From Abditibacteriaceae bacterium (lineage in GTDB: Bacteria > Armatimonadota > Abditibacteriia > Abditibacteriales > Abditibacteriaceae): DNA of 25,416 nucleotides. The DNA lies in contig JAYTEY010000338.1 of the NCBI GenBank assembly GCA_043734795.1, forward strand, positions 1-25,416, in the 5' to 3' direction. The notes beneath the pieces are model-generated. The model ran no database searches. It was not told the DNA's origin and saw nothing but the letters and a program-made list of their open reading frames with translations. The position numbers and the translations under genes were made by a program. This document shows positions 628-25,387 of this stretch, one piece after another (position 1 is the first letter of the stretch; the number at the start of each line of letters is the position of its first letter).

Positions 628-641
628 ATCGAGTACTCGAT
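628..641. repeat. Iterated palindrome ATCGAGTACTCGAT (exact)
   Basis: Intergenic; extends to a 16-bp palindrome at 627-642. Confidence 0.95.
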
Positions 642-664
642 TGATGAAGTCCCGGGGGAAAACG

Positions 665-922
665 ATGACGATTTCTTACGAGCCGACGAGCGACGTTTTG
701 ACGATCACACTCGAAGCTGCGCCGCTTGCGCAAAGCCAGTTGCAAGGCACCGTTTCCGTGGGCCTTGCGGCGAACGGCGCACCGGTTTCAGTCGCGGTTT
801 CGCAAGCCAGCACGTTGCTGTGGGAGCACGGCGGCCAGGTCAGCGTAATGCTGCCGCAAACCGTCGTGACGCAAGTCGTGCTCATCTCGCAAGTCGTGGA
901 AACGCGCGTTGTCGAACTATGA
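665..922 (+). CDS. DUF2283-like small protein (85 aa)
   Basis: GGGGGAA RBS-like sequence before ATG 665; N-terminus MTISYEPTSDVLTITL resembles the DUF2283 pattern M.I.YD...D.L.I.L. Confidence 0.55.
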   Translation: MTISYEPTSDVLTITLEAAPLAQSQLQGTVSVGLAANGAPVSVAVSQASTLLWEHGGQVSVMLPQTVVTQVVLISQVVETRVVEL

Positions 923-943
923 AAACGCGAGAAAGCGAATTGT

Positions 944-2725
944 TCAATTGGGAACGAGCGCATTGAGAATCGCGTTTTGCAGCGCTTTTTCGTCGCCGAA
1001 CGGCACGATTTGAACGCCGTCGAGGTCATTCAATCCGCACGCGGCTGTCGCGATAATCGGCACGCCGCGGCTCCACGCTTCGAGCAAAAAACGCGGACAA
1101 TCTTCAGCCAAAGCCGGTTGTACAACAGCTGCGACCTGATTTATCCACGCATCACACCGCGATTTTTCGACGCGCCGCGTTTTCAGGCCGCGCCAGAAAT
1201 CGTCGCCTTCCAGTTCGCTTCCCCAAAGCCACACTTCTAACTTCAGCGCGCGCGCGACTTCGCGCAACTCGTAAGCGCCTTTGCGCGCGGCTGTCGGGCC
1301 GGGAAAAAGCACGATTCGATTTCGTGTCGTCACTCGTTGCTGGCGCGTTTGGGTTTTCCAACTCAAATCGAGTACTCGATTGGCGAATAAAACCGCGATT
1401 TTTGGGTGCGGCGAAACCAGAAATCGCGCGTTTTGGAGCGCGGTTCGTTCGGTTTCAACCAGCTTTTGCGGCGCGCGAAACTCGCGCAGGGTGGCGCGTT
1501 CGGGGTGAATGGCGCTTTGTGCGTCCAGTCGGCGATGCAGTTCGTGAAAAGGCAGACGCGTCATCAAGACATCGAAAGTGCGACCGCCCAGGGCACCGTC
1601 GCGCCACAAAAACGGCAGAAAGCTTTGCGCGACAACGACATGTGTCGCATCGTGCGCCAGTTTTTTCGCCAAAGCGCGACTCAAAAGTTCTGTCGTTTCG
1701 AGTTGCGCGTTCAAACGTTGCGCGCCCAAATTGCCCTGGCGCCGCGCTTGAAAGCTGCGCCACAAAGCCGCCGTTCGCGCTTCAAAAACTGTCTTGAAAT
1801 CGTGGGTTTTCCACGAATTGCGCGCGCGTTTTCCTACCCAACTTTCGGCTCGCAGTGGAACCAGAACGTCGTCATCGCCGCCGATTTGGGCGCGCACAAA
1901 ATCTTGCCATTCCGGCCAGGGTTCATCCAACAGAAAAGCGGTTTTGCCGACAACCGTCTCGCTTTCACGATGGCGAAAACACGCGGTTTGCGCGCACGAA
2001 GCGCAACTGTGAACCGGGACATCGAGCCGCGGACGCGCGGTTTTTTGCGGCTCAAACACGACGTTTGGCGCGGCTGGCTTGGGCGTTTTCGCCCACAATT
2101 GGACGACCAGTTCGTCGCGTGTCAGGGAAGTTCGCAGCAGCAAATCGCACGGCGCGCGAAAGCGAAAATCGACGTAATTCCAGGCGACTGTCGCGTCGCG
2201 CCCGCTTTGCGCCTGCGAGCCGGGAACGATTTGCGAATGCGCGTGGCGCTCGACGATTTCGAGTTGCGCCTGCAACGCTACATCATAAAGCGCATTCGAC
2301 AACTGGCACAAACCGCCGCCAACTGCGGGCATCAAACAGCCTTCGCGCAGCAAGCGGCCACGTGCAAAACCGCGCCGAGTTGTCGCTCGCCCGACTTGCT
2401 TCCAAAAGCTGAAAACCTGCCCGCCAGGAATCAGAACGCGGTTCAAGCGCCGAGAGGCGACACGCAAGTTCTGCACTTTGCCGATTTGCAGCGCGCGTTC
2501 GGACTGGGTTTCGTCGTTCCACAAAGCCGTGCGCGACTGCGCGTGCAACATCGAGTACTCGATTGTGTCATCGCTTGGTTTCCAGCGCCGCACATTGCGC
2601 ACGACATCGAAAAACGCGCGCCGCATCTGATGAACGGTCGCTTTCGCGTGAAAGATCGCGGCTTCGCGGCGTGTCGGAAGGCGGCGCGAATCGGGCTGCG
2701 TCGGGATTTTCGCGGAAGGTTTCAT
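944..2725 (-). CDS. VanW-family domain fused to a C-terminal glycosyltransferase-like (GT-B/GT4-type) domain (593 aa)
   Basis: VanW motifs NLRVA...FSFWKQVG...GGGLCQLSNALY...ERHAHS...DATVAWNYVDFRF; C-terminal RKGAYEL...QPALAEDCPRFLLEAWSRGVPIIAT resembles the GT4 nucleotide-sugar-binding half. Confidence 0.75.
   Translation of the reverse strand: MKPSAKIPTQPDSRRLPTRREAAIFHAKATVHQMRRAFFDVVRNVRRWKPSDDTIEYSMLHAQSRTALWNDETQSERALQIGKVQNLRVASRRLNRVLIPGGQVFSFWKQVGRATTRRGFARGRLLREGCLMPAVGGGLCQLSNALYDVALQAQLEIVERHAHSQIVPGSQAQSGRDATVAWNYVDFRFRAPCDLLLRTSLTRDELVVQLWAKTPKPAAPNVVFEPQKTARPRLDVPVHSCASCAQTACFRHRESETVVGKTAFLLDEPWPEWQDFVRAQIGGDDDVLVPLRAESWVGKRARNSWKTHDFKTVFEARTAALWRSFQARRQGNLGAQRLNAQLETTELLSRALAKKLAHDATHVVVAQSFLPFLWRDGALGGRTFDVLMTRLPFHELHRRLDAQSAIHPERATLREFRAPQKLVETERTALQNARFLVSPHPKIAVLFANRVLDLSWKTQTRQQRVTTRNRIVLFPGPTAARKGAYELREVARALKLEVWLWGSELEGDDFWRGLKTRRVEKSRCDAWINQVAAVVQPALAEDCPRFLLEAWSRGVPIIATAACGLNDLDGVQIVPFGDEKALQNAILNALVPN
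1367..1380. repeat. Iterated palindrome (exact)
   Basis: In the VanW-GT CDS, read as RVLD. Confidence 0.95.
2550..2563. repeat. Iterated palindrome (exact)
   Basis: In the VanW-GT N-terminal region, read as IEYS. Confidence 0.95.
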
Positions 2726-2775
2726 GGCGTCGGAAGAAACAACGCGCCATGCCGCGCGTTTGTCTCAAGTCGTAT

Positions 2776-2788
2776 TGTTATAATTATA
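2776..2788. promoter_or_regulatory. Extended -10 (TGtTATAAT, +) overlapping a minus-strand TATAAT
   Basis: TGTTATAAT at 2776-2784; TATAATTATA (2779-2788) is self-complementary; lies in the 72-bp gap between divergent genes. Confidence 0.55.
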
Positions 2789-2797
2789 GCCGCCACG

Positions 2798-3343
2798 ATG
2801 AATCGCTCTCACACTTCAAAACCTAAAAACGCGCGCGCGCCGCAGCATCGCGCCGCGCGTTTTCGTGGCGCCAGTGCGCTGCTGGCGACGGCGATGTTGC
2901 TGCTCGCTTTTGCGCCGTTTCAAAGTGCCAACGCCGATTCGCTGAAAAGTTTCAACGCGCAATGGGCGCAGGTTTCGTCCAGCTTGGTTTCTTCGCTGGG
3001 CGCGACCGATGAGGCGACCGCGCGCGTTCAAAGCGAGCAGTTGTTCTTGTGGATGCAAACGCGCGTTGCATCGTTCGAGAATCCGCAAGGTTTGTCGGTC
3101 GGCCAGTTCGTCGCTTTGCTCGATGAATGGCGCCAAACCGAGCGCGGCAAAATCAGCGTTCCCCAAATTCACGCCAAGACGAAACAACCGCAATCGAGTA
3201 CTCGATTGCGCGCGAGTTCGTTTCTCGAGCTTGCTTTCGCGCCACAAATTGCCACTTTCAACCCGCGCTCTCATGCGCCGTTTTCTTCTTCTCATGCCGC
3301 CGCGAAACTTTCCGGCGTGCGCACCAATCGTCGTCACGAATAG
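2798..3343 (+). CDS. Exported protein with Sec signal peptide directly upstream of secA; candidate SecM-like monitor peptide (181 aa)
   Basis: Basic n-region, hydrophobic ASALLATAMLLLAFAPF, ANA-D cleavage site; C-terminus FSSSHAAAKLSGVRTNRRHE. This is the last 181 codons of track ORF 1406..3343. Confidence 0.7.
   Translation: MNRSHTSKPKNARAPQHRAARFRGASALLATAMLLLAFAPFQSANADSLKSFNAQWAQVSSSLVSSLGATDEATARVQSEQLFLWMQTRVASFENPQGLSVGQFVALLDEWRQTERGKISVPQIHAKTKQPQSSTRLRASSFLELAFAPQIATFNPRSHAPFSSSHAAAKLSGVRTNRRHE
3193..3206. repeat. Iterated palindrome (exact)
   Basis: In the secA-upstream ORF, read as SSTR; extends to a 22-bp palindrome at 3189-3210. Confidence 0.95.
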
Positions 3344-3466
3344 CTTTCAGTTGTCGGTGTTCAGTGTTCGGTGGCCAGTTCCATCGCGCTGCGCCGCGCT
3401 TCGTCGCGCCTGACAATCAATAACCCAATTTCAAAAACCGCGAGAAATCTCGCCTGGAGACACACG

Positions 3467-6400
3467 ATGTTGAACTTGAAACATTTGTTCGGCGGCAAGC
3501 CGAAAGACGAAGACGCAAAGTCGGGCGCCGTTCAACTGGCGCCCGGAGCGCAGACGCCCGGAATCGCCGGAGCCGTCGCCAAACTGTTCGACAAAAACGA
3601 ACAAGAAGTCGCCAAACTGCGCCCGACAGTCGAACGCGTCAACACCCTGGCCGCTGAACTCAAAGCGTTGTCCGACGAAGAACTCAAAGCGCGTTCGCAA
3701 AAGCTGCGCGAAACTTTCCAGGAAATCGTGACGCAAAAACTGTCGCGTTCGCGCAACGCGGAAGGCGAAGCGTTCGGCTGGCAGGAACTGGCGACGGAAA
3801 TGGACTGGAGCGACGAATATCATCGCGCGCGCAAAGCCGCGGAAAAAGAAACGCTGGAAGAATTGCTGCCCGAAGCGTTTGCGCTCACGCGCGAAGCCGG
3901 CGACCGCACGATCGGGCTGCGTCACTTCGATGTGCAGCTCATCGGCGGCGCGGTTTTGCACAGCGGCCGCATCGGCGAAATGCGCACCGGCGAAGGGAAA
4001 ACGCTTGTTGCCACGCTGCCGACGTACCTCAATGCGCTCAGCGGGCGCGGCGTTCACGTCGTCACAGTCAACGATTATCTGGCCGAGCGCGACGCCAACT
4101 GGATGCGCCCGATTTATGAATTCTTGGGACTCAGCGTCGCGTTTTTGACCAACGACCTGGAAAACGACGCGCGCAAACCCGCTTATGCGTGCGACGTTTT
4201 GTATGGCACCAACAGCGAGTTCGGCTTCGATTATCTGCGCGACAACATGGCGCGCACGTCCGACGACATGGTGCAGCGCGCGCTCAACTTCGCCATCGTC
4301 GATGAAGTCGATAACATCCTGATCGACGAAGCGCGCACGCCTTTGATTATCTCGGCGCAGGTCGCCAAAACCGACCGCGCTTTGCGGCGCCAGCAGATGG
4401 CGAAAACCTGCGACGGTCTGGCGCGCAACCTCATGCCCGCCGTCACCGACCGCGAAATCGAAAACCTGCAAGACAGTCTGACTGAGCGCGGGCGCATCGA
4501 CATCGACGGCTTGATGCGCGAAATTCTCAAAAACGGCGCCTTCGATCAGGCCGCGAGCTATCTTGTCGATTCCTACTTAATAGGCGAACGCAGCGCGCGC
4601 GTGGAAAACGCGTCGCACCTGCTCGATGTCGCAATCGAGTACTCGAATGCCGGTTTGATCGACGCCGCAGGCCGTGATCATCTGCAAAACATCGCGGTCG
4701 AAGCGGTTCATCCCGACCGTTTGCGCGACGCCTGGACTCAAGAAATCGCGCGCCTGAGCGAACCGTTCGCGCAAGCATTCGCGTTCAACATGGAAGAAGG
4801 CAACGCGCGCGCGCTGGCGATGTCGCTCGATTTGGGCGACGACGCGAGCATCGAATTCGCGCCGCGACTGGACGAAACCCAAAGCAAAATGCCGGTCGTC
4901 GCGCAAATCGTCGCCGAAGAAATGGCGCGCCGCAACCTGGTTTCCGAAGGCGCAGTTGCGGACGTTTCGGCTGCTCTGTTGGGCGCGGGGAATTCGCCCC
5001 AAGCGATTCATTCGGCGTTAATGGAAGCGGTTTTGGCATCGCCCGGCGGCGTTCAGGAAGCCGACGCTTTGCTGCATGAAGCGGTCGCGGAAAGCGGCGC
5101 AATCGGCGGCATCAAGAACGAGGACAGCGCGCGTCGCATCATCGGCGCGCTGGAAGAAGTTTCGCTGCGCGGACTTTTGCCTTTCGAGACCGGCGAGCGT
5201 TTGTGGGAATCGGTGAAATTAACGCAAGGCCGCGACGCTTTGCGCAGCGAGATTGCGCGCACAGTCGAAGCGCATCCGGGCGAAGCCGCGCAAAAAATCG
5301 CGCAACTGGCAAACGAGTACTCGAACGCGCGCCAGGCGTTCTTGCAAACCGAATCGGAGACTTTGAAGTCGCAGTTGGGCGCTTATGAAATCGTGGCGAA
5401 GCAGGCGCGAAACGGTGCAACGGCCAACGCGTTGCGCGCGACTCTGCAAAGCGAAATCGGCAAAAGCGGCGCGTTCGGCGAAGCGACCAAGCTGGTGAAA
5501 AACTTCGTGCGCGAGCAAAATCGCGCGCACGAATCTTTGGCCGGAAGTTTGGCCGAAGAAATGGCGCAGTGGGTCGAAGTTCCGCGCGACGCCAACAAAA
5601 TTCTGGCGCAACTGTTCGGCGAAGGCGGCAAAACCGGCGAAGTGCGCGAGCGCATTCTGTTGGCTGTGCGTGATTTGCCCGGCGAAAATACCGAGCTTCC
5701 CGCGCTGATCGGCGAAAGCGTGCGCCAACTTCAAGAATGGCGCAGCGAACACGCGCATCTTTTGGTGACGGAAATTAGCGAGCGTGTCGAGCTTCCCGCC
5801 GAATCGAGTACTGGAATTGTGGCCGCGATTGAAAACGGCGAGTTCGCGGGCAATTTGGAAGATTTCATCGGCGAGCAGCTGCTGGCTTCTCCGCAAATCG
5901 CGCTTCAAGCGCAGGCGATTGACGAATTCGGCGCGCGCCTGGCGGCTTTCGAAGACGAATCCGACACGCAAATCCTGAGTTCGATTCATGACGTTTTGCC
6001 TTTGTCGGACGACGCGCGCGACGCCTTGCAGGAAACGCTGGACGCGACCGAAACCGATCTGCACAAAGCGATTTTCGGGACTTTGGCCGCCGACGCCGTG
6101 AGCCGCCATCTGGAGCCATTGTTGACCGAAGAAAACGCGGTCGCTTTTGCCGAAGAAGTGACGCGGCGTTTGCCGCTGGCGAAAAACGTCCGCAAGCGCG
6201 TCAAGGCGAACGCGTTCGTCGGTCGTTCCGCCGAGCAGCTGATGCGCGCGATCGTGCGTTTGGTGCAGGAAACTTTCGCGGTCGTGCAAGTCGATGAAGG
6301 TGTCGGCGAAGACAGCCTGAAACGCGTCGTGCGCAACCTGGGCTGGCTGGTCGAAAAAGACGAGAAACGTCGCCAGGCGGCGCTGACCGACATGGGAACT

Positions 6401-9400
6401 TTGGTCGCCGAGCGCGAAGCCGGAACGCCCGCCTTTAGCGACCCGGAAAATTTCCTGGAAACGCTGGTCTCCAACGAAATTTTGACCGAAGACGAAGCCG
6501 CCGTTTTGCGTCGCGCGCAAGCCGAAAACCCAAATGACACGATTTCGACAACAGTCGATCGAGTGCTGCGTTTGCCTGCCGACCGCCGCCGCCGTTTGGC
6601 CGAAGCCAAGCTGCAAGAGATTCAGCCGGTTTTGGATCAGGCGGTCAAGGCGCACGCGCTGTTTCACCGCGAAGTGCATTACGTCATCGCCAGCAACCCG
6701 GAAACCGGCAAGCAGGAAATCGTCATCGTCGACGAATTTACAGGCCGCAAAATGCCGGGACGCCGCTTCAGCGAAGGCTTGCACGAAGCCTTGGAAGGCA
6801 AACACGATTTGGAAGTCCAATTGGAATCTCAAACGGTTGCGACGGTCACGATTCAGAATTATTTCCGGCTTTATAACAAGCTGGGCGGCATGACGGGAAC
6901 CGCGAAAACCGAAGAAGCCGAGTTCGCCAAAACCTATGGCATCGAGGTCGTTTCGATCCCGACCAACCGCCAGATCAAGCGCCGCGACTTTCCCGATGTC
7001 GTCTACAAAACCGCCGAAGCCAAGTTCCGCGCGATTACGTTCGAGATTTTGGAACATCATTGCGCCGGTCAGCCGGTTTTGGTCGGAACGCGCAGCGTCG
7101 AGGTTTCGGAACGCATGAGCGAGCGTTTGAAAGCGCAGCCTTTGCAGCTTTTGGCCTTGCAGCAATTGATCAAGTCGAAGTTGTGGGATGACAAAAGCGT
7201 GCCCGCCGACCAAAAAGCCGAGATCGTGCAAGGCTTGAATACGCCGATCGCGCAGCTCAACATGATGCAGGTCAAAGCCGTCGCGCGTCAGTTCAGCATC
7301 AATCCCGACGCCAATCACGAAGACAACATCAACGCGCTGCTGGGTTTGTTCACGGTCGCTAACCCCAGCCGCGAAAAGCTCGAAACCGCGCTCAAAGTCG
7401 GCTTGCCGCACAACGTTTTGAACGCCAAAAACCATCGCAACGAAGCGCGCATCGTCGCCGAAGCCGCGCGCCCCGCGAGCGTCACGATCGCGACCAACAT
7501 GGCCGGTCGCGGCGTCGATATCGTTTTGGGCGGAACGCTTGACGTTGAATCGCGCTGGCGCGTGATGACGCTGCAAACCTTGGCGCGCGCGTTGGAAAAC
7601 AAAAGCGTGCAGGTGCGTTCGCGCAACGAAGAAACCACGCAAAAGTTCGTCGAACGATTGGCGCCCGAGCGTTTGCAGGATTTGGCGTGGATGAGTTTGA
7701 TGACGCAAACCGTCGATCAGTTGGAGCGCGAAGGCAAGCTGCAAGGCCAGATCGCCAAAGAACTGCGCGACACCCTGGCGCAGGAACTGACGACGCCCGA
7801 CCTGAAAAACAAAGTCCGTTCGCGCGCGCGGCGCTTGAACTTGCTGGATCAATTGCCGCTGGACGCCGCGCCGATGGACGACAATCGAGTACTCGATGCG
7901 CTCAACAACGACTTCAAGCGCTTGATGAACTTGAGCTTTCCCAACGAACAGCTTTTGATGGCGCTATCGAATGGCGTTTCGAGCCGCGCGACGGGACGCG
8001 ATCCGGGCGAAAGCGCTTTGCTGATGGCGCTTTCGCGGCCTCTTTCGATTGCACAAAACTCGTGCGAACGTTTGCTCGAAGTGTTGGACGAAACGCCCGA
8101 TCTGGACGAAATGCTGCTCGAAGCCGCGTCGCAATCCGCCGATTTGGGATATGCGCAGTCGTTCCTCGATTTGGCTTCACAGCTTCCCCACGTCACGCCG
8201 GAATGGGTCGAAGGCGAACTGAAACTGTTCAACGTGAGCAATGCCGCCGACGCCAAACGAGTACTCGATTTGCGCCAGAACACGCGCAAAGAAACCAACG
8301 AAGCGCAGATTCTCGCCGAACTGGGCGAACAAAATCTGGGTTTGCAATGGCTGCGCGAACGCTTGCGCGAATGGAACGTGGCGAGCGAAGCGCGCGCATT
8401 TCAAGCGACGCCCGAACTTCAGGAAATGCTCGGCGACAGTGCCGTCGTGCACTTGAAACTGGACAAAGAGCGCGTCGCAGCTTTGCGCAAAGAATGGCAA
8501 AACGGCGGCGATCATCGGCGCGCTTTGGTCACAGTCGAGGCGCCGAACCTGATTTTGCTGGGCGATGTCGCCGAAGTCGCCGGACACGACGCGCCATTTC
8601 TGCATCCTGAATGGATGCACGCGACGATGGTGCAGCTCGATTTACTCACGGGCGACGACGTTTTTGAAGCGCAGATCATGGGTCAAGCCGAAGACGAAGC
8701 GGGCAACTTGCAGGAAATGCCGATCGACGTTCTGGTCTACCGCATTCGACTCAATCGAGTACTCGATGCGCTGGCTCCCACGCTGCGCGAAGCCGTGCAA
8801 ATCGTCGGAAGCGAACCGAAAGACGTGTTGCGCGAGTTGGAGCGCCAGGCGCCGTGGGCAGCGCAATTCATCGACGAAAATTGGGTTGCGGGCAAACTGC
8901 AAAGCCTCGATATGACGAGCGTGCCGGTTCAAAGCGGCGCGCCGGTTCGCATCGAAACCGGCGTGGCCGGACAAAGCGCCGACATCGTTTTGGAAGGCGA
9001 AGCGCGCGCGGAAGACATTGCGCACACGTCCGAGCAAGACGAAGTGAAAGCTTCGGGCGGTTTGCACATCATCGGAACCGAGCGCCACGAAAGCCGCCGC
9101 ATTGACAATCAGTTGAGAGGCCGCGCCGGTCGTCAGGGCGATCCGGGTTCTTCGCGTTTCTATGTTTCTCTGGAAGACGAATTGTGGCGTTTGTTCGGCG
9201 TGCGCGGACAAGGGCTTTTGAACAAATGGGACGAGGACGAAGCGGTCGAGCATCCGATGATTTCTAAGAGCGTCGAGCGCGCGCAAAAGAAAGTCGAGCT
9301 GAATCACTTTGAAGGCCGCAAAAACGTTTTGCAATATGACGACGTGATGAACGTGCAGCGCGAAGTGATTTACCGCGAGCGCCGTCGCGCGCTTTTGGGC

Positions 9401-10249
9401 GGCGACTTGCGCGATACAGTTCTCGATATGGCGCAGCAGGCGGCACTTTCCGAAGCCGAAAAACAGTGTCCGCGGGCGGTTCGTTCCGAGGAATGGGACA
9501 AGCACAAACTCTTCGTCGGATTGGGTCGTTTGTTCGGCGCGTCCTTGCTGCACAAGCATTTGCAGGAAGACGAACTCGCGGCAATCGCCAACCGCGACGA
9601 GATCGACGAGCGCTTGATGGAAGTTGCCGAGGCTTGCTACAACGCGCGCGAAACCGAAATGGGCGAGGAAAACTTGCGCAGTCTGGAAGCGTGGCAAGTC
9701 ACGCGTTCAATAGACGAGTATTGGATGGAACATCTGGCGGAAATGGACTATCTGCGCGACGCGATCTGGCAGGAAGGCTATGCGCAGAAAGAGCCGATCG
9801 GCGTTTATCGCCAGGAAGGTTTCGCCCTGTTCCAAAAGATGCAGGACGAGATTCGGCGCGAAGTCACAGAAGCGGTTTTTTCGGCGCAAAACGAAATGTC
9901 GCTGGATGACTTCGCTTATGGCGGCCCGGAACTGAGCGAGTTGCAAGAAGCGCGTTTGGTGCAAATGATGCCGATGGACGACGGCGGAATCGAAGACGGC
10001 GCCTTGCTGGACAAAGACGCCGACGGCGATGACGACGAAGAAATCCTGGTTTCCAGTTCGCCGATGACGATTCCCAATGCGCCCAATCGCGAAGTGGCGA
10101 CACAATCGAGTACTCGATTGCAAAGCGGCGGCTCGGTTTCGGGCAACTCGTTTCCTGGCGCGAACAATGGCGGAACAAACAGCGGCAATCAACCGCTGAG
10201 TCGGGCAGAACGGCGCGCGCGTGAACGCGACGGCAAAAAGCGCGGTTGA
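3467..10249 (+). CDS. secA: Preprotein translocase ATPase SecA, giant form (~2260 aa) with large insertions
   Basis: GGAGA RBS before ATG 3467. Motifs in SecA order: [50 protein letters not shown]...[101 protein letters not shown]. Confidence 0.97.
4634..4647. repeat. Iterated palindrome (1 mismatch, ATCGAGTACTCGAA)
   Basis: In the SecA PPXD insertion, read as IEYS. Confidence 0.85.
5312..5325. repeat. Iterated palindrome (2 mismatches, AACGAGTACTCGAA)
   Basis: In the SecA PPXD insertion, read as NEYS. Confidence 0.7.
5803..5816. repeat. Iterated palindrome (2 mismatches, ATCGAGTACTGGAA)
   Basis: In the SecA PPXD insertion, read as SSTG; the same variant occurs as reverse complement at 18205. 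Confidence 0.7.
7884..7897. repeat. Iterated palindrome (exact)
   Basis: In the SecA VAR insertion, read as RVLD. Confidence 0.95.
8256..8269. repeat. Iterated palindrome (1 mismatch, AACGAGTACTCGAT)
   Basis: In the SecA VAR insertion, read as RVLD. Confidence 0.85.
8754..8767. repeat. Iterated palindrome (exact)
   Basis: In the SecA VAR insertion, read as RVLD. Confidence 0.95.
10105..10118. repeat. Iterated palindrome (exact)
   Basis: In the SecA C-terminal tail, read as SSTR; extends to 18 bp at 10103-10120. Confidence 0.95.
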
Positions 10250-10313
10250 CGACTATTCGCAGTGCGCACGAGCCGTTGAGAAAGTTTGGGAAATAGGAGT
10301 TTGGCTTTTTTCC

Positions 10314-10484
10314 TTAGAATCAGTTTGAAAAGTCGAAAAATAAGTGTCAAACCGGCAGTTTGTCATTCTGAGCAAAGCGAAAAATCTGACTTTTCATATA
10401 GATTCTTCGCTTTGCTCAGAATGACAAACTCTTACTTTTTCGATAATTTGCTGGCTCTTTACGACTTCAAAAACAGCCTCTTAA
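10314..10484. mobile_element. MITE-like composite element A (~170 bp) with imperfect outer inverted ends and a central REP dimer
   Basis: Left end TTAGAATCAGTTTGAAAAGTCG versus reverse complement of right end TTAAGAGGCTGTTTTTGAAGTCG; flanks homologous to the element at 13900-14064. Confidence 0.55.
10357..10430. repeat. REP-like inverted-repeat dimer
   Basis: 31-bp arms (1 mismatch) AGTTTGTCATTCTGAGCAAAGCGAAAAATCT around a 12-nt loop. Confidence 0.9.
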
Positions 10485-10511
10485 AACGCCTTCGTTGCAT
10501 CGAATTCAACC

Positions 10512-16921: not shown

Positions 16922-19030
16922 TTAACGCCTTTGTGTGCTTTCGGTCGCCAATCGAGTACTCGATTCGGCTTCGACGGCACTGCGCGCGACCGGAGTTCCG
17001 AACAGGTTGCGGTTGCGTTCGCCTGTTCCGACAACGCTCCACATGAACAAGCGCGTCACGCTGATGGCCGAAAACAACGACAGCAAAACTCCCACGCCCA
17101 ACGTCAAGGCGAAACCTTTGACCGGCCCGGTTCCGAAGAAGAACAAGACTGTCGCAGCGATCAACGTCGTGACGTGCGAATCCAAAATCGCCGTCCAGGC
17201 GCGACTAAAAGCGGCGCGCAAAGCAGCCGTAAATGTCGGCTGAATCGCCATTTCTTCACGCAAGCGTTCAAAAACCAGGATGTTGGTGTCCAATGACATC
17301 GCAATCGCCAGGAGAAAACCGGCGATTCCCGGCAGTGTCAGCGTTCCGCCCAACAAGATGAAAACCGCGAGGTTGAGCAAACAGTAGATCACGAGCGCCA
17401 AGTCGGCCAAAAGTCCCGGCAAGCGATAAAAAACGATCATAAAGAGCGCGACAGCCACCAACCCGATGGCGCCCGCGCGCAAGCTTTTGCTCAGCGAATC
17501 CTGGCCCAAAGTCGCGGAAACCGTGCGGTTCTCTACGACATCGATCGGCGCTGGAAGCGCGCCGCTGTTCAAAAGCGAAGTCAGGGTTTGCGCTTCTTCG
17601 ATGGTTTTGAAGCCGCCCGAAATCTGGCCTTCGCCCGATGTAATGGCGCTGTTGACGCTGGGAGCCGTAATGCAGCGCTCGTCCAGAAAAACTGGAATGT
17701 AGCGGTTTTTGCCGGGGTCGGCTTCCGAGTTCGGGTTTTGCACACGGCGCGTCACATCCGCGAAACGCTGAACGCTGTCGCCCTGCAATTCAAAGGAAAC
17801 CGCGGGCTGGCCGTTTTGCTGAAAAACCGCTTTGGTGTTCGGCTTGACATCCTGGCCGGGAACGACCAATTCCGACAATTGGCGCGCGACATTGGTCGGC
17901 ACAGCCGTGGTTGGTTTGCCGCCTTCCAAACGATAAAAGACGACGTTTTCGGTTCCCGTTGTCGGGTCGCGCTGTGGAATAGGAAGCAAGTTGGCGGGCA
18001 GCAAACGGATTTCCATTTGCGCCGTCGTGCCGATCACTTCAACCGCTTTTTGCGGATCGTTGACGCCCGGCAATTGAACGATGATGCGGTCGGTTCCCTG
18101 CTTTTGAATCAAAGGCTCGGAAACGCCCAACTTGTCGACTCGCGAGCGCACGATTTCCACCGTTCTGTCCAAACGCTCGCTGCTTTGACTCGCGCCCATG
18201 CCATTTCCAGTACTCGATCCCGCATTTGGGTCATAAAATTTGGCTTCGCCGTTGGGCGAAAACTTGGCGCCGCTCACGGTTTGCAGCGCTGCCGCGATCG
18301 CGGTTTTCTGCGCGTTGAACTCGTTCAAATCTTTGGCTTGCGTGCGCACTTCCAAAGTGTCGCTGCTGCCGCTCGAAAAGTTGACATCGGCGCGATCCAA
18401 GCCCGCGCCGCCGTTCGCCAAAGCCGCCCGAACCTGCGCTAAAAAGGCGTCGCGCGCATCGGCGTCGGCCAGCTTACGGTCAAAGCGAAACGGGAAAAGC
18501 GCGCGGCGCACTTGCAGCACGAGGTTGACGCCGCCGCGCAAATCGAGTCCCAGCTTGACCGCCGTGTTGCGCTCATATGGAAAAATCGCGTAGTTGGCGG
18601 TCTGAAAAATTGGCGCCGGTTGAAAGGCATTGAAATCGACTTTTTGCGCCGTCGTCACGCCCGGCAAGGTTTTGCTGACGACAGCCGCAATGCGCGCCGC
18701 GCGATTTTGCCCTTCCTGGCGTGTCGTGGCCTTGTCGGAAACCGTCGCGGTTTTGGAATTGGCGTCGTAGGTCAAGCTCGAAAGCGGGACGTGATCGCGC
18801 CCGGACGGAAACTCCTTGATGAACGCGTCGTCGACCAGGTTGGCGGCGGTTTTTGCGGTTTGTCCTTTGGCGGGTTTGGGCGCCAATTGGTCGAATGGCT
18901 TGGCCGAAGCGAAGGTGAGCGTGTAGTTTTGCGATTGCGGCGGCGCGCCAATCGGGTAAAAAATGACGCCCAGACACGCGAGAACGAGGAGCGCAAGCCC
19001 CAGATATTGAACCGGACGGCGACGTAACAT
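16922..19030 (-). CDS. secD: Protein translocase subunit SecD (702 aa)
   Basis: KLGLDLRGG, RVDKLGVSEP.IQ.QG..RI.VQLPGV, AP.V...I..G.GQISG, LNSGALP, TVSATLG, TLTLPGIAG, DTNILVFER.REE, AILDSHVTT, GTGPVKGFA.TL; GAGG RBS. Confidence 0.96.
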   Translation of the reverse strand: MLRRRPVQYLGLALLVLACLGVIFYPIGAPPQSQNYTLTFASAKPFDQLAPKPAKGQTAKTAANLVDDAFIKEFPSGRDHVPLSSLTYDANSKTATVSDKATTRQEGQNRAARIAAVVSKTLPGVTTAQKVDFNAFQPAPIFQTANYAIFPYERNTAVKLGLDLRGGVNLVLQVRRALFPFRFDRKLADADARDAFLAQVRAALANGGAGLDRADVNFSSGSSDTLEVRTQAKDLNEFNAQKTAIAAALQTVSGAKFSPNGEAKFYDPNAGSSTGNGMGASQSSERLDRTVEIVRSRVDKLGVSEPLIQKQGTDRIIVQLPGVNDPQKAVEVIGTTAQMEIRLLPANLLPIPQRDPTTGTENVVFYRLEGGKPTTAVPTNVARQLSELVVPGQDVKPNTKAVFQQNGQPAVSFELQGDSVQRFADVTRRVQNPNSEADPGKNRYIPVFLDERCITAPSVNSAITSGEGQISGGFKTIEEAQTLTSLLNSGALPAPIDVVENRTVSATLGQDSLSKSLRAGAIGLVAVALFMIVFYRLPGLLADLALVIYCLLNLAVFILLGGTLTLPGIAGFLLAIAMSLDTNILVFERLREEMAIQPTFTAALRAAFSRAWTAILDSHVTTLIAATVLFFFGTGPVKGFALTLGVGVLLSLFSAISVTRLFMWSVVGTGERNRNLFGTPVARSAVEAESSTRLATESTQRR
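16951..16964. repeat. Iterated palindrome (exact)
   Basis: In the last codons of secD, read as SSTR. Confidence 0.95.
18205..18218. repeat. Iterated palindrome (2 mismatches, TTCCAGTACTCGAT)
   Basis: In a SecD Gly/Ser linker (AGSSTGNG). Confidence 0.7.
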
Positions 19031-19094: not shown

Positions 19095-19108
19095 ATCGAG
19101 TACTCGAT
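19095..19108. repeat. Iterated palindrome (exact)
   Basis: Between the divergent secD and tRNA-Val promoters. Confidence 0.95.
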
Positions 19109-19339: not shown

Positions 19340-19353
19340 ATCGAGTACTCGAT
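19340..19353. repeat. Iterated palindrome (exact)
   Basis: Intergenic; 16-bp form. Confidence 0.95.
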
Positions 19354-21385: not shown

Positions 21386-21399
21386 ATCGAGTACTCGAT
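21386..21399. repeat. Iterated palindrome (exact)
   Basis: In the infC-rpmI gap. Confidence 0.95.
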
Positions 21400-22232: not shown

Positions 22233-22246
22233 ATCGAGTACTCGAT
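22233..22246. repeat. Iterated palindrome (exact)
   Basis: Begins 7 bp after the rplT stop. Confidence 0.95.
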
Positions 22247-22301: not shown

Positions 22302-24326
22302 ATGAAATTTTTCCAGGCACATCGTGACTTTCAATATATCGTTCTGAGCAAAGCGAAGAATCTCATTGGAGTGAGATTCTTCGCTTTGCTCAGAACGACA
22401 AACCCGCGGCTGCGGCTCGTCGCTCTTTTTGCAATCAGCCTCATAATCTCTGGCTGCAACGACAAAAACCCAGCGCCGCAATCATCGCAAAAAGCTCAAA
22501 ACGGCGCTTTTCAAACTCTCGATCCGTGGATTTTGACGACGAAAATCCCCGACGCGCCGCGCGGAAATCGCGGTATTTTTCTGGGAAACGGGTTTTTGGG
22601 CGCGGGTTTCGGCGCCAATGGCGGAAGCGACGAGACCACGAAATGTTTCGCCGCCGGCGTTTACAACAACGAACATCTGGCCGAACTGCCGCAATGGAAC
22701 AAACTCGATTTGCCGCCTGGAAACCGCAATTATCAACAATCGCTCGACCTTGAAAAGGGCATTTTGACGACGCTATTTGGCGCGATTTCAGTCACGAGTT
22801 TTGTTTCGTTGCCCGTTCGCAACCTGGCGATTCTTCATGTCGAAGGCGCGGCTTTGCCGGAAAAACTGCCGCGATTTCCCGTTTCCGGCGATTGGATTTC
22901 GTCGCAAAAAGTCGTTTCCTCGCATGAAGCGATTTGGAAATTGCAATCGAGCGATGGCAAAACCGATTTGCAAATGCGCATCTGCGAAGTCGCCGATTCG
23001 CCGCGAAGCTGGACGCGGCTGGTGCAAATCGACACCGCACATCGAGTACTCGATTCCGCTTTGCCAACATATCGAACGCTTCTCGCACAACACCAAAACG
23101 CCTGGAAAAATCGCTGGCGCGCCGATATTCAAATCGACGGCGATTCTCAAACGCAGCAATTGGTCCACGCGCTGATGTTCAATTTGCTGTCGTGCGTGCG
23201 CGAAAGTTCGTCCACTTCGATTCCGCCCGAAGCCCTCGTCGGCGATCATTATCGCGGCCACATTTTCTGGGACGCCGAAATCTGGATGTTTCCCGCGCTG
23301 CTGGTGCAATATCCGAAATTGGCGAAAACGATTCTCGATTATCGCTGGAAGCACCTGAAAGCGGCGCGCCAAAACGCCACAAAGCAAGGCTTCAAAGGCG
23401 CCGATTTTCCGTGGGAAAGCGCGGCATCGGGAAACGAAGTCGCGCCGCCCGAATTTGCGCGCGAGCGACATATCACGGCTGATGTCGGCTGGGCGTTCTG
23501 GCAGTTTTGGCTGTGGACGGGCGATAAAAAATGGCTTCAATCGCGCGGACAAACGGTCATTTCCGATGTCGCCGACTTTTGGGCAAGCCGCGCGAAATGG
23601 AACGCGAAAACCGGAAAATACGACATTCTTCAGGTTTTAGGGCCGGACGAAAACGGCGGAATCGTCGACAACAATCTGTTCACAAACGCGATGGCGAAAA
23701 GTTGTCTGGAAAACGCGATTTCCGCCAATCGAGTACTCGATATTCGTCCGAATCCGCAATGGAAAATCGTCGCGCAAAAATTGAGTTTGCCATTCGATTC
23801 ACGACGAAAAATTTTCCTGAAAAACGACCGTGACAGCGCGCAAGGCACCAAACAAGCCGACGCCGAACTGGCGATTTATCCCGCTCATTTGCCGATGTCG
23901 CGCGACGTGATGCAGCGCACTTTCGATTTTCACCGCGCGCGCCCGACGCGTTTCGGCCCCGCCATGACGACTTCGATCCATACGATTATCGCCGCGCGAT
24001 TGGGCAGAAACGAGCAAGCAGAAACCTTTTTCCGCGAATCGTATCGGCCTTTTGTGCGCGGGCCGTTTCTGCTATTTTCCGAAAAACGCAGTTTGGACAG
24101 AAGCGTTTTCGCAACCGGAATCGGCGGCGTTTTGCAAAGCGTTTTCTCTGGTTTTGGCGATTTGCGAAGCGAAGATTTCAGCGCGAAAACGCCGCGACGA
24201 AAAATCGTTTTGCCCCGAAGCTGGAAGCGTTTGACGATTTCGGGAATTCGGTTTCAAGGCAAAAATTACACTTTGAAAGTGACTCCGAATTCGCGCGTTC
24301 TAAAACAGAACCCGGAACTTCAGTGA
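22302..24326 (+). CDS. Glycoside hydrolase family 65-like lipoprotein (acid trehalase / PGGHG-like)
   Basis: GHIFWDAEIWMFP, FPWES, HITADV, VLGPDE, NNLFTN, KQADA, GPAMT, FATGIGGVLQ; lipobox ISG-C (Cys codon 22455). Start uncertain: ATG 22248, ATG 22302 or GTG 22371. Confidence 0.88.
   Translation: MKFFQAHRDFQYIVLSKAKNLIGVRFFALLRTTNPRLRLVALFAISLIISGCNDKNPAPQSSQKAQNGAFQTLDPWILTTKIPDAPRGNRGIFLGNGFLGAGFGANGGSDETTKCFAAGVYNNEHLAELPQWNKLDLPPGNRNYQQSLDLEKGILTTLFGAISVTSFVSLPVRNLAILHVEGAALPEKLPRFPVSGDWISSQKVVSSHEAIWKLQSSDGKTDLQMRICEVADSPRSWTRLVQIDTAHRVLDSALPTYRTLLAQHQNAWKNRWRADIQIDGDSQTQQLVHALMFNLLSCVRESSSTSIPPEALVGDHYRGHIFWDAEIWMFPALLVQYPKLAKTILDYRWKHLKAARQNATKQGFKGADFPWESAASGNEVAPPEFARERHITADVGWAFWQFWLWTGDKKWLQSRGQTVISDVADFWASRAKWNAKTGKYDILQVLGPDENGGIVDNNLFTNAMAKSCLENAISANRVLDIRPNPQWKIVAQKLSLPFDSRRKIFLKNDRDSAQGTKQADAELAIYPAHLPMSRDVMQRTFDFHRARPTRFGPAMTTSIHTIIAARLGRNEQAETFFRESYRPFVRGPFLLFSEKRSLDRSVFATGIGGVLQSVFSGFGDLRSEDFSAKTPRRKIVLPRSWKRLTISGIRFQGKNYTLKVTPNSRVLKQNPELQ
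22339..22398. repeat. REP-like inverted-repeat dimer overlapping the GH65 5' coding region
   Basis: Perfect 27-bp arms TCGTTCTGAGCAAAGCGAAGAATCTCA around a 6-nt loop; stop-free in the GH65 frame. Confidence 0.9.
23041..23054. repeat. Iterated palindrome (exact)
   Basis: In the GH65 CDS, read as RVLD. Confidence 0.95.
23728..23741. repeat. Iterated palindrome (exact)
   Basis: In the GH65 CDS, read as RVLD. Confidence 0.95.
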
Positions 24327-24393
24327 CGGGCCTGACATAAGAGGAGCATCGCATCGTTACGCCAAGCTCGTCACCGACGTTCCGGGCTCTGTT
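24304..24393 (-). other. Long imperfect hairpin, candidate structured RNA on the minus strand
   Basis: 37-position stem with 30 Watson-Crick pairs, 5 G-U pairs (minus strand only) and 2 mismatches; 16-nt loop. Confidence 0.45.
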
Positions 24394-24439
24394 CGAGTGT
24401 TTAACCCAAGTTGCCACCCTCAGGATTGCATGATGTAGA

Positions 24440-24523
24440 AGTGTGTCATTCCGAGCGTAGCCGAGGAATCTTTGAACGTTTCAGCGACCTAAGATTCCTC
24501 GGCTACGCTCGGAATGACACACT
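24440..24523. repeat. REP-like inverted-repeat dimer (variant)
   Basis: Perfect 33-bp arms AGTGTGTCATTCCGAGCGTAGCCGAGGAATCTT around an 18-nt loop. Confidence 0.9.
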
Positions 24524-24573
24524 GTTATGATAATTCTTCAAGCAGAAACGATTCATGGCAATTTGGGTTATTT

Positions 24574-25347
24574 ATGATTTCATCTATCACGTCGCGCCAA
24601 CATCCGCTGTGCAAACTGGTGCGTTCGCTGCACAATTCCAAAGGTCGCAAGAAGGAAAAGCTGTTCGTTGTCGAAGGCGGCAATGGCGTTTCTGCCGCCT
24701 TGGGCGCGCGCTGGATGTTGCAGCGTTTGATCGTTTCCGACGACGAAATCGGCGCGGAATGGCGCACGTTGGCGGCTCGTCAAAACATCGAAGTCGCGAC
24801 GGTTTCGCCCGAGATTTTGGAATATCTGAGCGACGCGCAAACCGCGCCCGACGTGATCGCATTGGCGAAGTTGCAGACAACATCGAGTACTCGATATGAC
24901 GGTTTGACTTTGATTTTGGACGGCATCGGCGATCCGGGAAACGTCGGCACTTTGATTCGCACAGCTGATGCGGTCGGCGCGAACGGAATCGTTCTGACCG
25001 AAAACAGCGCCGATGCGTGGAGTCCCAAAGTCGTGCGCGCGAGTGCGGGAAGCGTGTTCCATTTGCCGCCAACCGAAAGCGAAATCGCCGAACTTTTAGC
25101 CAAACTTCAAGATGAAAATGTGCCGATAATCGCGGCTGTGGCGCACGACGGCGAAGATTGTTTTCATTTCAGTTGGCCGACCAAATGCGCCTTGGTTTTG
25201 GGTCACGAAACGCGCGGGGTTTCGGCTGAAATTGAAGCGGCAGCAACCGCGCGTGTGACAATTCCGATGTTTGGGCGGGCCGAAAGTTTGAATGTCGCCA
25301 ACGCGGGCGCGATTTTGATGTATGCGTGGCGGCAAGGCCAGAATTAG
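24574..25347 (+). CDS. TrmH/SpoU (SPOUT) RNA methyltransferase, TsnR/YsgA-like (257 aa)
   Basis: N-terminal ITSRQHP..K..R.L...K.R...LFVVEG; motifs DPGNVGTLIRTADA, VVRASAG, LVLGHETRGVS, IPMFGRAESLNVA. The track start at 24514 lies inside the REP. Confidence 0.93.
   Translation: MISSITSRQHPLCKLVRSLHNSKGRKKEKLFVVEGGNGVSAALGARWMLQRLIVSDDEIGAEWRTLAARQNIEVATVSPEILEYLSDAQTAPDVIALAKLQTTSSTRYDGLTLILDGIGDPGNVGTLIRTADAVGANGIVLTENSADAWSPKVVRASAGSVFHLPPTESEIAELLAKLQDENVPIIAAVAHDGEDCFHFSWPTKCALVLGHETRGVSAEIEAAATARVTIPMFGRAESLNVANAGAILMYAWRQGQN
24882..24895. repeat. Iterated palindrome (exact)
   Basis: In the TrmH interdomain linker, read as SSTR. Confidence 0.95.
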
Positions 25348-25373
25348 CCGCAGAATTTACAGAAACCACGGAA

Positions 25374-25387
25374 ATCGAGTACTCGAT
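25374..25387. repeat. Iterated palindrome (exact)
   Basis: Intergenic, downstream of the TrmH stop. Confidence 0.95.

Follow-up and report, generated by a model that had tools for sequence, protein, structure and literature searches.

Introduction

HIP1 (GCGATCGC) and the alternate palindromes of cyanobacteria are exact short palindromes with hundreds-fold over-representation, located in spacers and in all frames of genes, written with non-preferred codons, spaced non-randomly, enclosing shorter Type II-like palindromes, replaced by alternate words in related lineages, and conserved between genomes above the levels of background and codon effects (PMC4390886, PMC5861425, PMC13756078). Selection maintains HIP1 (PMC5861425), for which a role as an uptake sequence has been proposed (PMC13756078); a preprint reports that HIP1 enhances transformation in a manner that depends on homology and methylation (bioRxiv 10.1101/2024.09.10.611283). 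The uptake sequences DUS (PMC3630211) and USS (PMC2817400, PMC3458573) are 10-12 bp in length, occur about once per kb with about a third of the copies in the small non-coding fraction, are written by substitution into tolerant parts of proteins, and are kept at orthologous positions across species. Groups of species use dialects around a conserved core, as in the DUS of Neisseriaceae (PMC3630211), and uptake sequences coevolve with proteomes (PMC2817400).

The 12-bp palindrome TCGAGTACTCGA described here shares these features of HIP1 and of uptake sequences. It differs from HIP1 in its length (12 bp against 8 bp), in belonging to the phylum Abditibacteriota/Armatimonadota and not to cyanobacteria, in the presence of several dialects with a common 6-bp core within one family, in being regular at the 1-kb next-neighbour scale whereas a periodicity of 10-90 kb was reported for HIP1, and in that no methyltransferase was matched to it and its core tetranucleotide is purged in sister genera. 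From DUS and USS it differs in being palindromic, each copy being its own inverted repeat without inverted-repeat pairing at terminators, and in having a core linked with GTAC avoidance in relatives. No paper joining Abditibacterium with 'palindrom' was found in the literature.

Results

Copies of the palindrome in the window

The window, the whole stretch of 25,416 nucleotides analyzed here, carries 29 copies, while dinucleotide shuffles averaged 0.05 copies and never exceeded 1. The first-pass annotation had described 20 exact copies of a 14-bp palindrome, five with one mismatch and four with two mismatches, and all were located at the coordinates claimed. Positions below are those of the 14-bp word, without strand.

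In the first part of the window, exact 14-mers are located at 628-641 (12-mer core at 629-640), 1367-1380 (coding sequence of a VanW/glycosyltransferase gene, the ortholog of which in the relative G002 also has a copy), 2550-2563 (within a coding sequence), and 3193-3206 (conserved in G002, one mismatch in G003). The giant secA gene includes the exact 12-mer core with A as the right base at 4634-4647, which is conserved in G002 and G003 and aligns without gaps to unrelated sequences in G004 and G005; the 10-mer core CGAGTACTCG at 5312-5325, also CGAGTACTCG in G005; an exact 14-mer at 7884-7897, encoding NRVLD, where the ungapped ortholog of G004 has DAVLQ; a 10-mer core copy at 8256-8269, conserved in G002 and absent in G003; an exact 14-mer at 8754-8767, where G005 has CGAGTACTCG; and an exact 14-mer at 10105-10118 close to the 3' end, with the 12-mer conserved in G002 and G003. 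The decayed copy ATCGAGTACTGGAA at 5803-5816 is identical in G002 and G003.

Further downstream, exact 12-mer cores are located at 10516-10529 and 12042-12055 (right base A in both) and at 11015-11028 (left base T; SDR gene; conserved in G002 and G003). Intergenic exact 14-mers were identified at 11640-11653, 12597-12610 (between convergent genes), 14090-14103 (adjoining a tRNA gene at 14120-14204), 19095-19108 (12-mer conserved in G002 and G003), 19340-19353, 21386-21399, and 25374-25387. Exact 14-mers are also present in secF (15831-15844) and at the secD 3' end (16951-16964), both conserved in G002, at 22233-22246, in a GH65 gene (23041-23054 and 23728-23741), and in a SpoU methylase gene (24882-24895). 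Two decayed copies complete the set, TTCGAGTCCTCGAT at 14732-14745, where G002 and G003 have the intact 12-mer, and TTCCAGTACTCGAT at 18205-18218 in secD, where G003 is similar. The division proposed between intergenic and coding positions held, at about 8-11 against 18-21 by our gene calls.

Genome-wide abundance and the repeated unit

The source organism is an uncultured sediment bacterium of the Abditibacteriaceae. In its assembly (2,376,582 bp, 565 contigs), the exact 14-mer occurs 1321 times and is the top-ranking 14-mer, so that the enrichment extends beyond the window. The iterated palindrome is thus real as first proposed, while its conserved unit is not 14 bp but the 12-mer TCGAGTACTCGA, with 2261 copies in the whole 2.38-Mb assembly; the outer A and T are preferences only (left position, A 77%, T 21%). 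The statement that the base to the left of the 14-bp word is always A or C reflected the small sample, the genome-wide frequencies being A 44, C 23, T 23, and G 10%. The density is about one per kb in genes and spacers (about 0.7-1 per kb), and 78% of all AGTACT occurrences fall within TCGAGTACTCGA. The reversed word has 0 copies against 2261. As for HIP1, the abundance exceeds composition and Markov nulls by orders of magnitude; in 450 kb of G003, 325 copies were observed against 0.1 expected from a third-order Markov model. Sites at Hamming distances 0, 1, 2, and 3 number 2261, 500, 194, and 943, respectively, classes 2 and 3 being at the control level, and internal decay most often takes the form of C>T at the TCGA CpG (46 and 49 cases). 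The HIP1 word GCGATCGC occurs just 60 times, and since the organism is an Abditibacteriaceae MAG, the palindrome should be regarded as an analogue of HIP1 and not HIP1 itself. The genome counts, together with a survey of 60 relatives in which the word was limited to part of one genus, bear out the first-pass view of a dispersed, frame-independent, lineage-specific genome-wide word of the HIP1 type.

Origin of the copies in place

Within genes all three frames are used, as had been noted for the window (578, 365, and 534 copies by frame, with 773 intergenic, in the genome). Coding sequences hold 66% of the copies, and 34% are located in non-coding DNA, which makes up 14% of the genome. USS and DUS have a similar density and placement (about 0.7-1 per kb, with non-coding enrichment). 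The codons that make up the motif, GTA, CGA, and AGT, are seldom used outside it, and codon preference does not explain the motif, as is the case for HIP1: the motif accounts for 30% of GTA and 19% of CGA codons overall, and outside it GTA makes up 2.5% of Val codons. At window position 8754, AAT CGA GTA CTC GAT (NRVLD) stands against AAC CGC GTG CTG GAC (NRVLD) in G004, with synonymous changes only. Orthologs without the motif mostly align without gaps and have other residues at the site, and no signature of a 12-bp insertion was detected at copies in the ortholog alignments. The coding copies occupy segments of lower conservation (amino-acid identity of the flanks, 0.60 against 0.78). At 76.5% nucleotide identity to G003, 55 of 93 orthologous copies (59%) are identical there against 10.8% of other 12-mers, a 5.5-fold higher interspecies conservation. 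The copies thus arise in place by substitutions, with the use of rare codons and with alteration of the protein sequence in poorly conserved segments.

An abundant palindrome could be a miniature mobile element, a REP-type repeat, or an assembly or adapter artefact. REP/BIME elements with their RAYT enzymes are likewise abundant palindromes, and a 22-bp relative of the motif in one species (G001) lies between genes in 85% of cases, flanked by A-rich and T-rich sequence as are REP or terminator hairpins. The 12-mer differs from REP/BIME in being mostly genic, perfect, and short, without a GTAG-type head; two thirds of its copies are inside genes, in all frames, with the genes undisrupted. Flanks of the copies are unrelated, a weak consensus aside, and lack the longer shared stretches expected at the ends of a mobile element. 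Y1 transposase (RAYT-type) genes do not follow the motif, with no such gene detected in G001 and with several or at least one in G004, which has no motif. With respect to an artefact, contigs from four public sediment-metagenome runs cover window positions 7000-12000 with 0-1 differences, motif copies included, and the same word is present in the genomes of two further species, each assembled independently, with a single 3.83-Mb chromosome in one case; the word is therefore supported at the level of reads and at orthologous positions in three independent assemblies. These explanations are thus extremely improbable, and for the 12-mer the mobile-element and artefact readings are refuted by the genic copies, the ungapped orthologs, the unshared flanks, and the read-level support. 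The earlier exclusion of CRISPR, IS, and REP agrees with copies that are made in place, not inserted, and preferentially conserved.

Spacing along the chromosome

The copies are far more evenly spaced than chance. The coefficient of variation of the gaps is 0.61 against 0.92 in simulations, gaps shorter than 200 bp make up 3.2% against 19.9%, and eight gaps exceed 3 kb where 31 were expected; only two of the 565 contigs have no GAGTACTC, the central octamer, against 25 expected. In 2-kb bins of G003, the variance (0.98) is below the mean (1.47). In 20 samples of 20 kb along the G003 chromosome, on which origin and terminus were not located, each sample had 4-21 copies without a terminus-like gap.

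Regular coverage might be selected for the binding of a chromosome-structuring protein, such as a nucleoid factor of the SlmA/Noc type or one recruiting a topoisomerase. The motif is a perfect palindrome of operator size, its copies avoid neighbours within 200 bp, and its central 8 bp, GAGTACTC, are identical to the centre of the 12-bp palindromic E. coli site GTGAGTACTCAC, bound by the dimeric HTH protein SlmA (PMC3020112). A role in chromosome structure has also been proposed for HIP1 (PMC5861425). In both genes and spacers, the A+T content of the flanks oscillates in phase with the motif with a period near 11 bp (31% at +5, 57% at +10, 38% at +15, and 50% at +21), which is reminiscent of the phasing around the gyrase motif (PMC6379681). 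This 11-bp periodicity is, however, a property of the whole genome, just as strong at sites over 120 bp away from the nearest copy; the flanking signal exceeds a GAATTC-anchored control in the first helical turn only, and neighbouring copies show no helical phasing. The SlmA-like C-terminal domain PF22276 is absent from 27 genomes of the family, while the E. coli control was detected, and the outer bases of the two palindromes differ. SlmA sites number roughly 50, and the approximately 2000-4000 sites here are far above this, about 50-fold in copy number. No terminus exclusion was seen in the G003 samples. The fast change of dialect between close species and the complete loss in G004 would be odd for an essential architectural site. 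This explanation is doubtful. A structural binding site maintained by selection would lead one to expect preferential conservation and even spacing just as much as a self-DNA tag would.

Alternatively, the word could be a protective self-tag against a host nuclease, similar to Chi, so that degradation stops at the palindrome, which acts in either orientation, and untagged phage or foreign DNA is destroyed. The dense and even distribution, in which long gaps are few, the presence on nearly every contig, and the species-specific dialects agree with such a tag. On the other hand, Chi sites are shorter than 12 bp, no candidate nuclease was found, and GTAC purging in relatives is left unexplained. 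Among viral sequences, no phage or viral contig was rich in the word, and the 119 stretches matched, with a single site in each of the 80 listed, correspond to the chance level. A tag of this kind is quite improbable.

Dialects and avoidance of GTAC in relatives

TCGAGTACTCGA is common to three species of the genus, and a fourth has (C)GAGTACTC(G). In a non-sister genus, two species have GCAAGTACTTGC and CAAAGTACTTTG; G001 has the 22-bp palindrome and G004 no motif. GAGTACTC is present in G005 at 24 of 83 sites orthologous to those of the source genome. In sister genera, GTAC and the hexamers containing it are almost purged; in G010, AGTACT occurs once against 654 for the control, and CGTACG twice against 76. 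These dialects and the near-absence of GTAC were beyond the view of the first-pass annotation. TCGAGTACTCGA is one dialect in an Abditibacteriaceae family of AGTACT-centred palindromes, new here, and the purge argues that some endonuclease or methyltransferase activity on GTAC/AGTACT probably exists in the family.

The word could be a side effect of DNA methylation with methyl-linked repair, or the target of these processes, following the model of Elhai for HIP1, in which one or more methyltransferases would act on the nested TCGA, GTAC, and AGTACT and a sequence-specific bias in mismatch correction would turn near-matches into matches. Two TCGA are nested around AGTACT/GTAC, as HIP1 nests GATC in CGATCG (PMC4390886); the purge of GTAC hexamers is the signature expected of restriction on the motif core, and the prevalence of C>T decay at TCGA points in the same direction. 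Several N6/N4 methyltransferases are present in every species, including the motif-less G004, but no methyltransferase family follows the presence or absence of the motif. A mechanism of the Dcm/Vsr type is unsupported because C5 methyltransferase was not found in the source genome, G002, or G005, with a fragment only in G003, and Vsr was not found in G002, G003, or G005. Repair bias predicts neither the even spacing nor the avoidance of close neighbours, and twelve fixed base pairs, with flanks that vary by species, demand more specificity than is known of Type II methyltransferases. We consider methylation and repair an unlikely origin of the word.

Search for linked genes

The suggested correlation of the motif with methyltransferase or other gene families did not emerge: among the methyltransferase, Vsr, ScaI-like, SlmA-like, and competence genes, none co-varies with it, and none emerged as its reader. 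No RE_ScaI homolog was found in the 27 family genomes, a result of little weight since the model also matched none of the control genomes. All six species encode ComEC. The five relatives searched (G001-G005) have ComEA-like HHH_3 and several secretins, and DprA was identified in the source genome, G001-G003, and G005. Neither DprA nor its neighbour topA was found in G004, and the absence of both together indicates an assembly gap. Competence genes are thus encoded as in species with DUS or USS, but they are permissive only, because the motif-less G004 has them to the same extent as the other species.

Discussion

These observations altogether indicate, with near certainty, that TCGAGTACTCGA is an iterated palindrome, specific to its lineage and spread over the whole genome, of the kind of HIP1 and uptake sequences, made by point substitution in all frames of genes and denser between genes, and one dialect of the AGTACT-centred family; a force at the level of the DNA word overrides codon preference and amino-acid sequence, keeps copies perfect or makes them so again, and spaces them at about 0.9 kb. 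As to its role, we tentatively favour a tag for self-DNA, recognised by a symmetric protein and accumulated through a drive of the uptake or recombination type, possibly tied to GTAC restriction. The uptake model alone leaves the near-absence of GTAC in sister genera unexplained. The uptake sequences known to us are not palindromes, which counts against the uptake reading, and to our knowledge transformation has never been shown in this phylum.

For a self-DNA tag, the reader would be a symmetric (dimeric) sequence-specific protein recognising the word as double-stranded DNA, with conserved contacts to the central AGTACT and contacts to the three flanking base pairs that drift among species. 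The copies would build up by molecular drive and selection, as modelled for DUS and USS: tagged fragments would be preferentially taken up and recombined, near-matches would become matches where the protein tolerates the change, and one tag per recombination-sized fragment would be favoured. The purging of GTAC, the motif core, from sister genera suggests that the tag system may have evolved amid GTAC-specific restriction. TCGAGTACTCGA resembles cyanobacterial HIP1 and DNA-uptake sequences, and in these bacteria the tag would mark DNA of their own kind during exchange, in the uptake and/or recombination of transforming DNA, with a self-recognition that may depend on methylation, as now proposed for HIP1.

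Identification of the iterated unit

A pattern search recovered all of the copies of the 14-mer ATCGAGTACTCGAT that the first-pass annotation had counted in the window (20 exact, five with one mismatch and four with two mismatches), against a mean of 0.05 copies expected there from dinucleotide shuffles. The window is an entire contig (C338) of the genome under study, G000, which was placed in Abditibacteriaceae via SecD and whose assembly consists of 2,376,582 bp in 565 contigs (77% complete, 55.8% G+C). With 1321 exact copies genome-wide, ATCGAGTACTCGAT is the commonest 14-mer of G000. The nested counts are 3586 for GTAC, 2813 for AGTACT, 2650 for the 8-mer GAGTACTC, 2474 for CGAGTACTCG and 2261 for the 12-mer TCGAGTACTCGA, falling to 1321 for the 14-mer and 293 for the 16-mer, and the real unit is therefore the 12-mer TCGAGTACTCGA (hereafter the word). 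The base just outside the 12-mer is a mere preference (A 77%, T 21%), and of the GTAC sites of the genome, 78% are part of AGTACT.

Dialects of the AGTACT-centred palindrome

The same 12-mer is iterated in two other species of the genus (g1), G002 (2510 copies) and G003 (2770 copies), and drops to 144 copies in G005, two in G001, one in G004 and 0–1 in 35 further relatives. The 8-mer GAGTACTC is abundant in G002 (3172), G003 (3681) and G005 (4077), next to its 2650 copies in G000, and reaches at most 102 elsewhere. Even inside the three-species group the outer base varies, the T:A preference being about 6:4 in G003 and about 8:2 in G000.

Differently flanked versions, or dialects, were defined by k-mer censuses of samples of about 50–450 kb. 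The dialect of G005 is (C)GAGTACTC(G), of which 31% is intergenic. That of G001 is a 22–24-bp palindrome, A-GTACGGTCGA-WW-TCGACCGTAC-T, also written AGTACGGTCGA-WW-TCGACCGTACT (sample L050–L069), with 127 exact copies per 400 kb (about 0.3 per kb), 85% of them intergenic, and with A-rich upstream and T-rich downstream flanks. In appearance this palindrome resembles a stereotyped bidirectional terminator hairpin. The census found no iterated word in G004. Two species of another genus, g4, carry (CT)GCAAGTACTTGC(AG) (G008, with 3241 AGTACT) and CAAAGTACTTTG (G012, with 1987 copies of AAAGTACTTT). In a SecD plus SecF tree, g1 adjoins Abditibacterium (g2) and g4 groups with g6 and g5, so that the two tagged genera are not sisters. 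Within g1, G004 may group, with weak support, with G005; this grouping, together with the sites common to G005 and the three-species group, would make G004 a case of secondary loss.

In G004, which is otherwise motif-less, the dialect CAAAGTACTTTG of the g4 species G012 appears six times, at about one copy per kb, within 6.5 kb (contig C59, L083, positions 1154–7605). Within this stretch lie genes for one DUF4331, one HupE/UreJ and one TPR protein and for a 1452-aa protein without assignment. The stretch was probably imported from a species with the G012 dialect, unless the contig is chimeric; a search of G012, G008 and the g1 genomes gave no close match to a donor. Contig C33 or C13 of the G005 sample has 45 copies of a repeat containing GTTTCAATTCCACACTGGTTCGATTAGA, which probably form a CRISPR array.

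Placement and spacing of the word

Genes of G000 were called by a simple codon-usage gene finder, by which 85.7% of the genome is coding. A total of 773 copies (34%) are intergenic, at a density of 2.3 per kb versus 0.73 per kb within genes, and 46% of intergenic regions hold at least one copy. Coding copies are found in all three frames (578/365/534), specifying SSTR, (I/F/L)EYS and xRVL(D/E). The sole positional feature is an avoidance of positions 5–10 nt upstream of start codons. Copies between tandem or convergent genes are as frequent as elsewhere, and no pile-up was seen 3' of stop codons in G000; since this post-stop peak is missing and copies are common between divergent genes too, a terminator role was rejected.

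Spacing is far evener than chance, with a coefficient of variation of gaps of 0.61 versus 0.92 in simulation. Gaps below 200 bp make up 3.2% versus 19.9% by chance, gaps above 3 kb number eight versus 31 expected, and two of the 565 contigs lack GAGTACTC versus 25 expected. Despite the strong avoidance of spacing below 200 bp, near-tandem doublets 13–19 bp apart occur at 12 places. On the single chromosome of G003 (OZ255721.1; 3,828,131 bp), 20 evenly spread 20-kb samples each contained 4–21 copies, with neither a regional gap nor an origin/terminus trend visible, GC skew being too noisy for placing the origin.

One-mismatch variants number about 500 in G000, their frequency climbing toward the word ends, and the two-mismatch (194) and three-mismatch (943) sites fall inside the range of five control words; the sites are thus essentially two-state.

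Around the copies, A+T content oscillates with a period of about 11 bp in genes and spacers. An equally strong 11-bp periodicity pervades the G000 genome far from any copy, so that the word is phase-locked to a property of the genome and the first helical turn alone stands out. Motif-specific DNA wrapping was rejected on this ground, and helical phasing of neighbouring copies was absent. The periodicity of G000 is itself unusually strong (autocorrelation amplitude ~8e-3; the other species of the genus show one 2–5 times smaller).

The palindromy and the spacing would fit a binding site for a protein with a structural role, and the Escherichia coli SlmA site GTGAGTACTCAC has its central octamer in common with the word (PMC3020112). 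No SlmA-like domain was found in the family, however; given this, and because the sites are so numerous and the word is lost so easily, a structural site is unlikely.

The window contains a second, unrelated repeat, a hairpin some 75 nt long whose arms measure 31–33 nt (AGTTTGTCATTCTGAGCAAAGCGAAGAATCT and its complement) and whose loop measures about 12 nt, at positions 10357–10430, 13949–14022, 22332–22403, 24440–24523 and 1–51. The copy at 22332–22403 falls at the start of the GH65-region ORF or ahead of it. In G003 and G002 the element, which looks like a REP or MITE, is found scores of times, in either orientation.

Origin and maintenance of the copies

In a syntenic region, the word stands at matching positions in the three motif-rich species, and motif-less relatives have unrelated sequence of equal length there. 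At window position 8754, for example, AAT CGA GTA CTC GAT is AAC CGC GTG CTG GAC in G004, both encoding NRVLD. A total of 321 orthologous coding sites were aligned. In G003, 55 of 93 orthologous copies are identical; for the remaining 12-mers of those genes, which share 76.5% nucleotide identity, the figure is 10.8%. G005 has GAGTACTC at 24 of 83 orthologous sites. The word was found at none of those of G004 (0/42) or G001 (0/95), where the peptide encoded is different in nearly every case. The codons of the word are rare outside it: GTA makes up 2.5% of Val codons, and the word holds 30% of all GTA codons of G000. The protein segments that hold copies are less conserved (identity of the flanks 0.60 versus 0.78 in the G003 comparison) and more prone to indels.

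An origin by 12-bp insertion was rejected, exact four-codon gaps being found at 3 of 204 sites, without excess. The ungapped orthologs, the conservation, the rare codons and this lack of excess together rule out insertion or transposition. Overwriting of whole patches was also rejected, because at most sites where G000 and G003 differ in 9–10 of the 12 bases the copy sits a few codons away, in a segment prone to indels, genuine whole-patch differences being few. Contigs from four sediment-metagenome runs of one study match window positions 7000–12000, motif copies included, with 0–1 differences, and many further metagenome contigs match at the word alone and diverge beyond it. A mobile element or an artefact as the source of the word is excluded. 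The ortholog comparisons show that a force at the DNA level both builds and maintains the word.

The secA-like ORF of the window (3371–10249, plus strand; 2292 aa in one frame) keeps 83–84% nucleotide identity in G002 and G003 and contains seven motif copies or remnants, that at 10105 being near its 3' end.

Depletion of GTAC in relatives

Among 201 genomes of the phylum (G012 not being drawn), AGTACT is hyper-abundant in G000, G002, G003, G005 and G008 only, and it is nearly absent in many. It numbers 1 versus 654 for the control in G010, 5 versus 901 in G013 and 3 versus 548 in G022, and 0–11 in most genomes of g17 and g56, genera of other families. CGTACG likewise numbers 2 versus 76 (G010), 2 versus 200 (G015) and 4 versus 423 (G042). 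As both hexamers are depleted in the same family genomes, the avoided word is GTAC. Across the 3–6 Mb genomes of sister genera (G010, G013, G015, G016, G019, G022, G042 and others), g17 and g56, AGTACT occurs 0–13 and CGTACG 2–12 times, and control words occur hundreds of times. Within the family, genera g2 and g6 are classed as GTAC-purged. Such extreme depletion suggests a GTAC-directed restriction activity, or another purging force, in the family. In Helicobacter, a GTAC system limits the uptake of exogenous DNA (PMC2588503).

Search for a putative reader protein

None of the protein families tested varies in step with the word. N6/N4 methyltransferases are present in all six species of the genus, and those of PF01555, PF02086, PF02384 and PF07669 were rejected since their presence or absence does not track the motif. 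The universal small PF01555 enzyme is CcrM/PRK11524-like, below the cut-off, and a methyltransferase match on contig C189 of G000 was discarded as the rRNA methylase RlmD. Dam-type enzymes occur in G004 and G005 only, and Eco57I/N6_Mtase types vary across species. C5 methyltransferases were detected as several genes in G001 and a fragment in G003 and in no other species of the genus; with none found in G000, G002 or G005, and Vsr found, among the relatives searched, in G001 only, repair of the Dcm/Vsr type was rejected. RE_ScaI had no match in 27 genomes, the model matching no control genome either. A bias linked to methylation and repair would be in line with the nested Type II-like sites of the word and with the GTAC purge, but the lack of C5 methyltransferase and Vsr and the 12-bp specificity speak against it; we consider it improbable.

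RAYT/Y1 transposases are uncorrelated with the word and were rejected. Carriage by phages was rejected as well, viral matches being at chance level: no viral contig rich in the word was found, and each of the 80 listed among 119 matching viral stretches has a single site. As for competence, all six species of the genus have ComEC, each of the five relatives searched (G001–G005) has HHH_3 and secretins, and G000–G003 and G005 have DprA. Neither DprA nor its syntenic neighbour topA was found in G004, which points to an assembly gap and supports no inference.

Interpretation of the word

The word is an iterated palindrome of the same kind as HIP1 and uptake sequences, and the AGTACT core is conserved among its dialects. 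Iterated palindromes have been described in cyanobacteria, and uptake sequences in Neisseriaceae and Pasteurellaceae. We know of uptake sequences from these two proteobacterial families only, and to our knowledge highly iterated palindromes have had no accepted mechanism for thirty years. No literature combining Abditibacterium with "palindrom" was found. New here are the series of dialects with one hexamer core across species and two non-sister genera, the internal controls, in which the word is shortened, lengthened or lost, and the near-elimination of the same core tetranucleotide in sister genera.

In its density, non-coding enrichment, tolerant protein segments, positional conservation, even spacing of about 1 kb, core-plus-dialect evolution and presence of competence genes, taken together, the word comes closest to uptake sequences (PMC3630211, PMC2817400) and to HIP1 as it has recently been read, namely as a methylation-dependent transformation signal (PMC13756078; bioRxiv 10.1101/2024.09.10.611283). 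Because of these matching properties and the reading of HIP1, we rank first, by analogy and tentatively, a self-DNA mark in DNA exchange that would be read by a symmetric protein; this is quite possible, if short of probable. That the word is a Chi-like protective tag appears very unlikely.

A wider proposal, which we regard as rather doubtful when taken jointly, is that the word is an AGTACT-based, palindromic, dialect-forming species barcode with a dimeric reader, coupled to family-wide GTAC-directed restriction. The reader would have conserved contacts to the core and fast-evolving contacts to the flanks, and would decide which DNA is taken up, recombined or spared. The tag would be the flip side of the restriction activity, each lineage either purging GTAC wholly or restricting it to the recognised 12-bp tag.

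If true, the proposal would add a first DUS-like dialect system from beyond the Proteobacteria and would provide a mechanistic link between restriction avoidance, HIP-type palindromes and uptake sequences. As a sharp marker of species and dialect, the word can help to bin these metagenome-assembled genomes and to point out DNA that has been transferred, such as the island of G004 with its copies of CAAAGTACTTTG. The complete G003 chromosome was presumably assembled from long reads, in which case the raw data may also reveal its methylation. With the same 12-mer, a shorter form, two re-flanked forms, a 22-bp relative or none, the family offers an unusually clean natural experiment of high value as a test system, in which looking for the reader by phyletic profile becomes well-posed, as do direct tests of binding, of uptake and of methylation.
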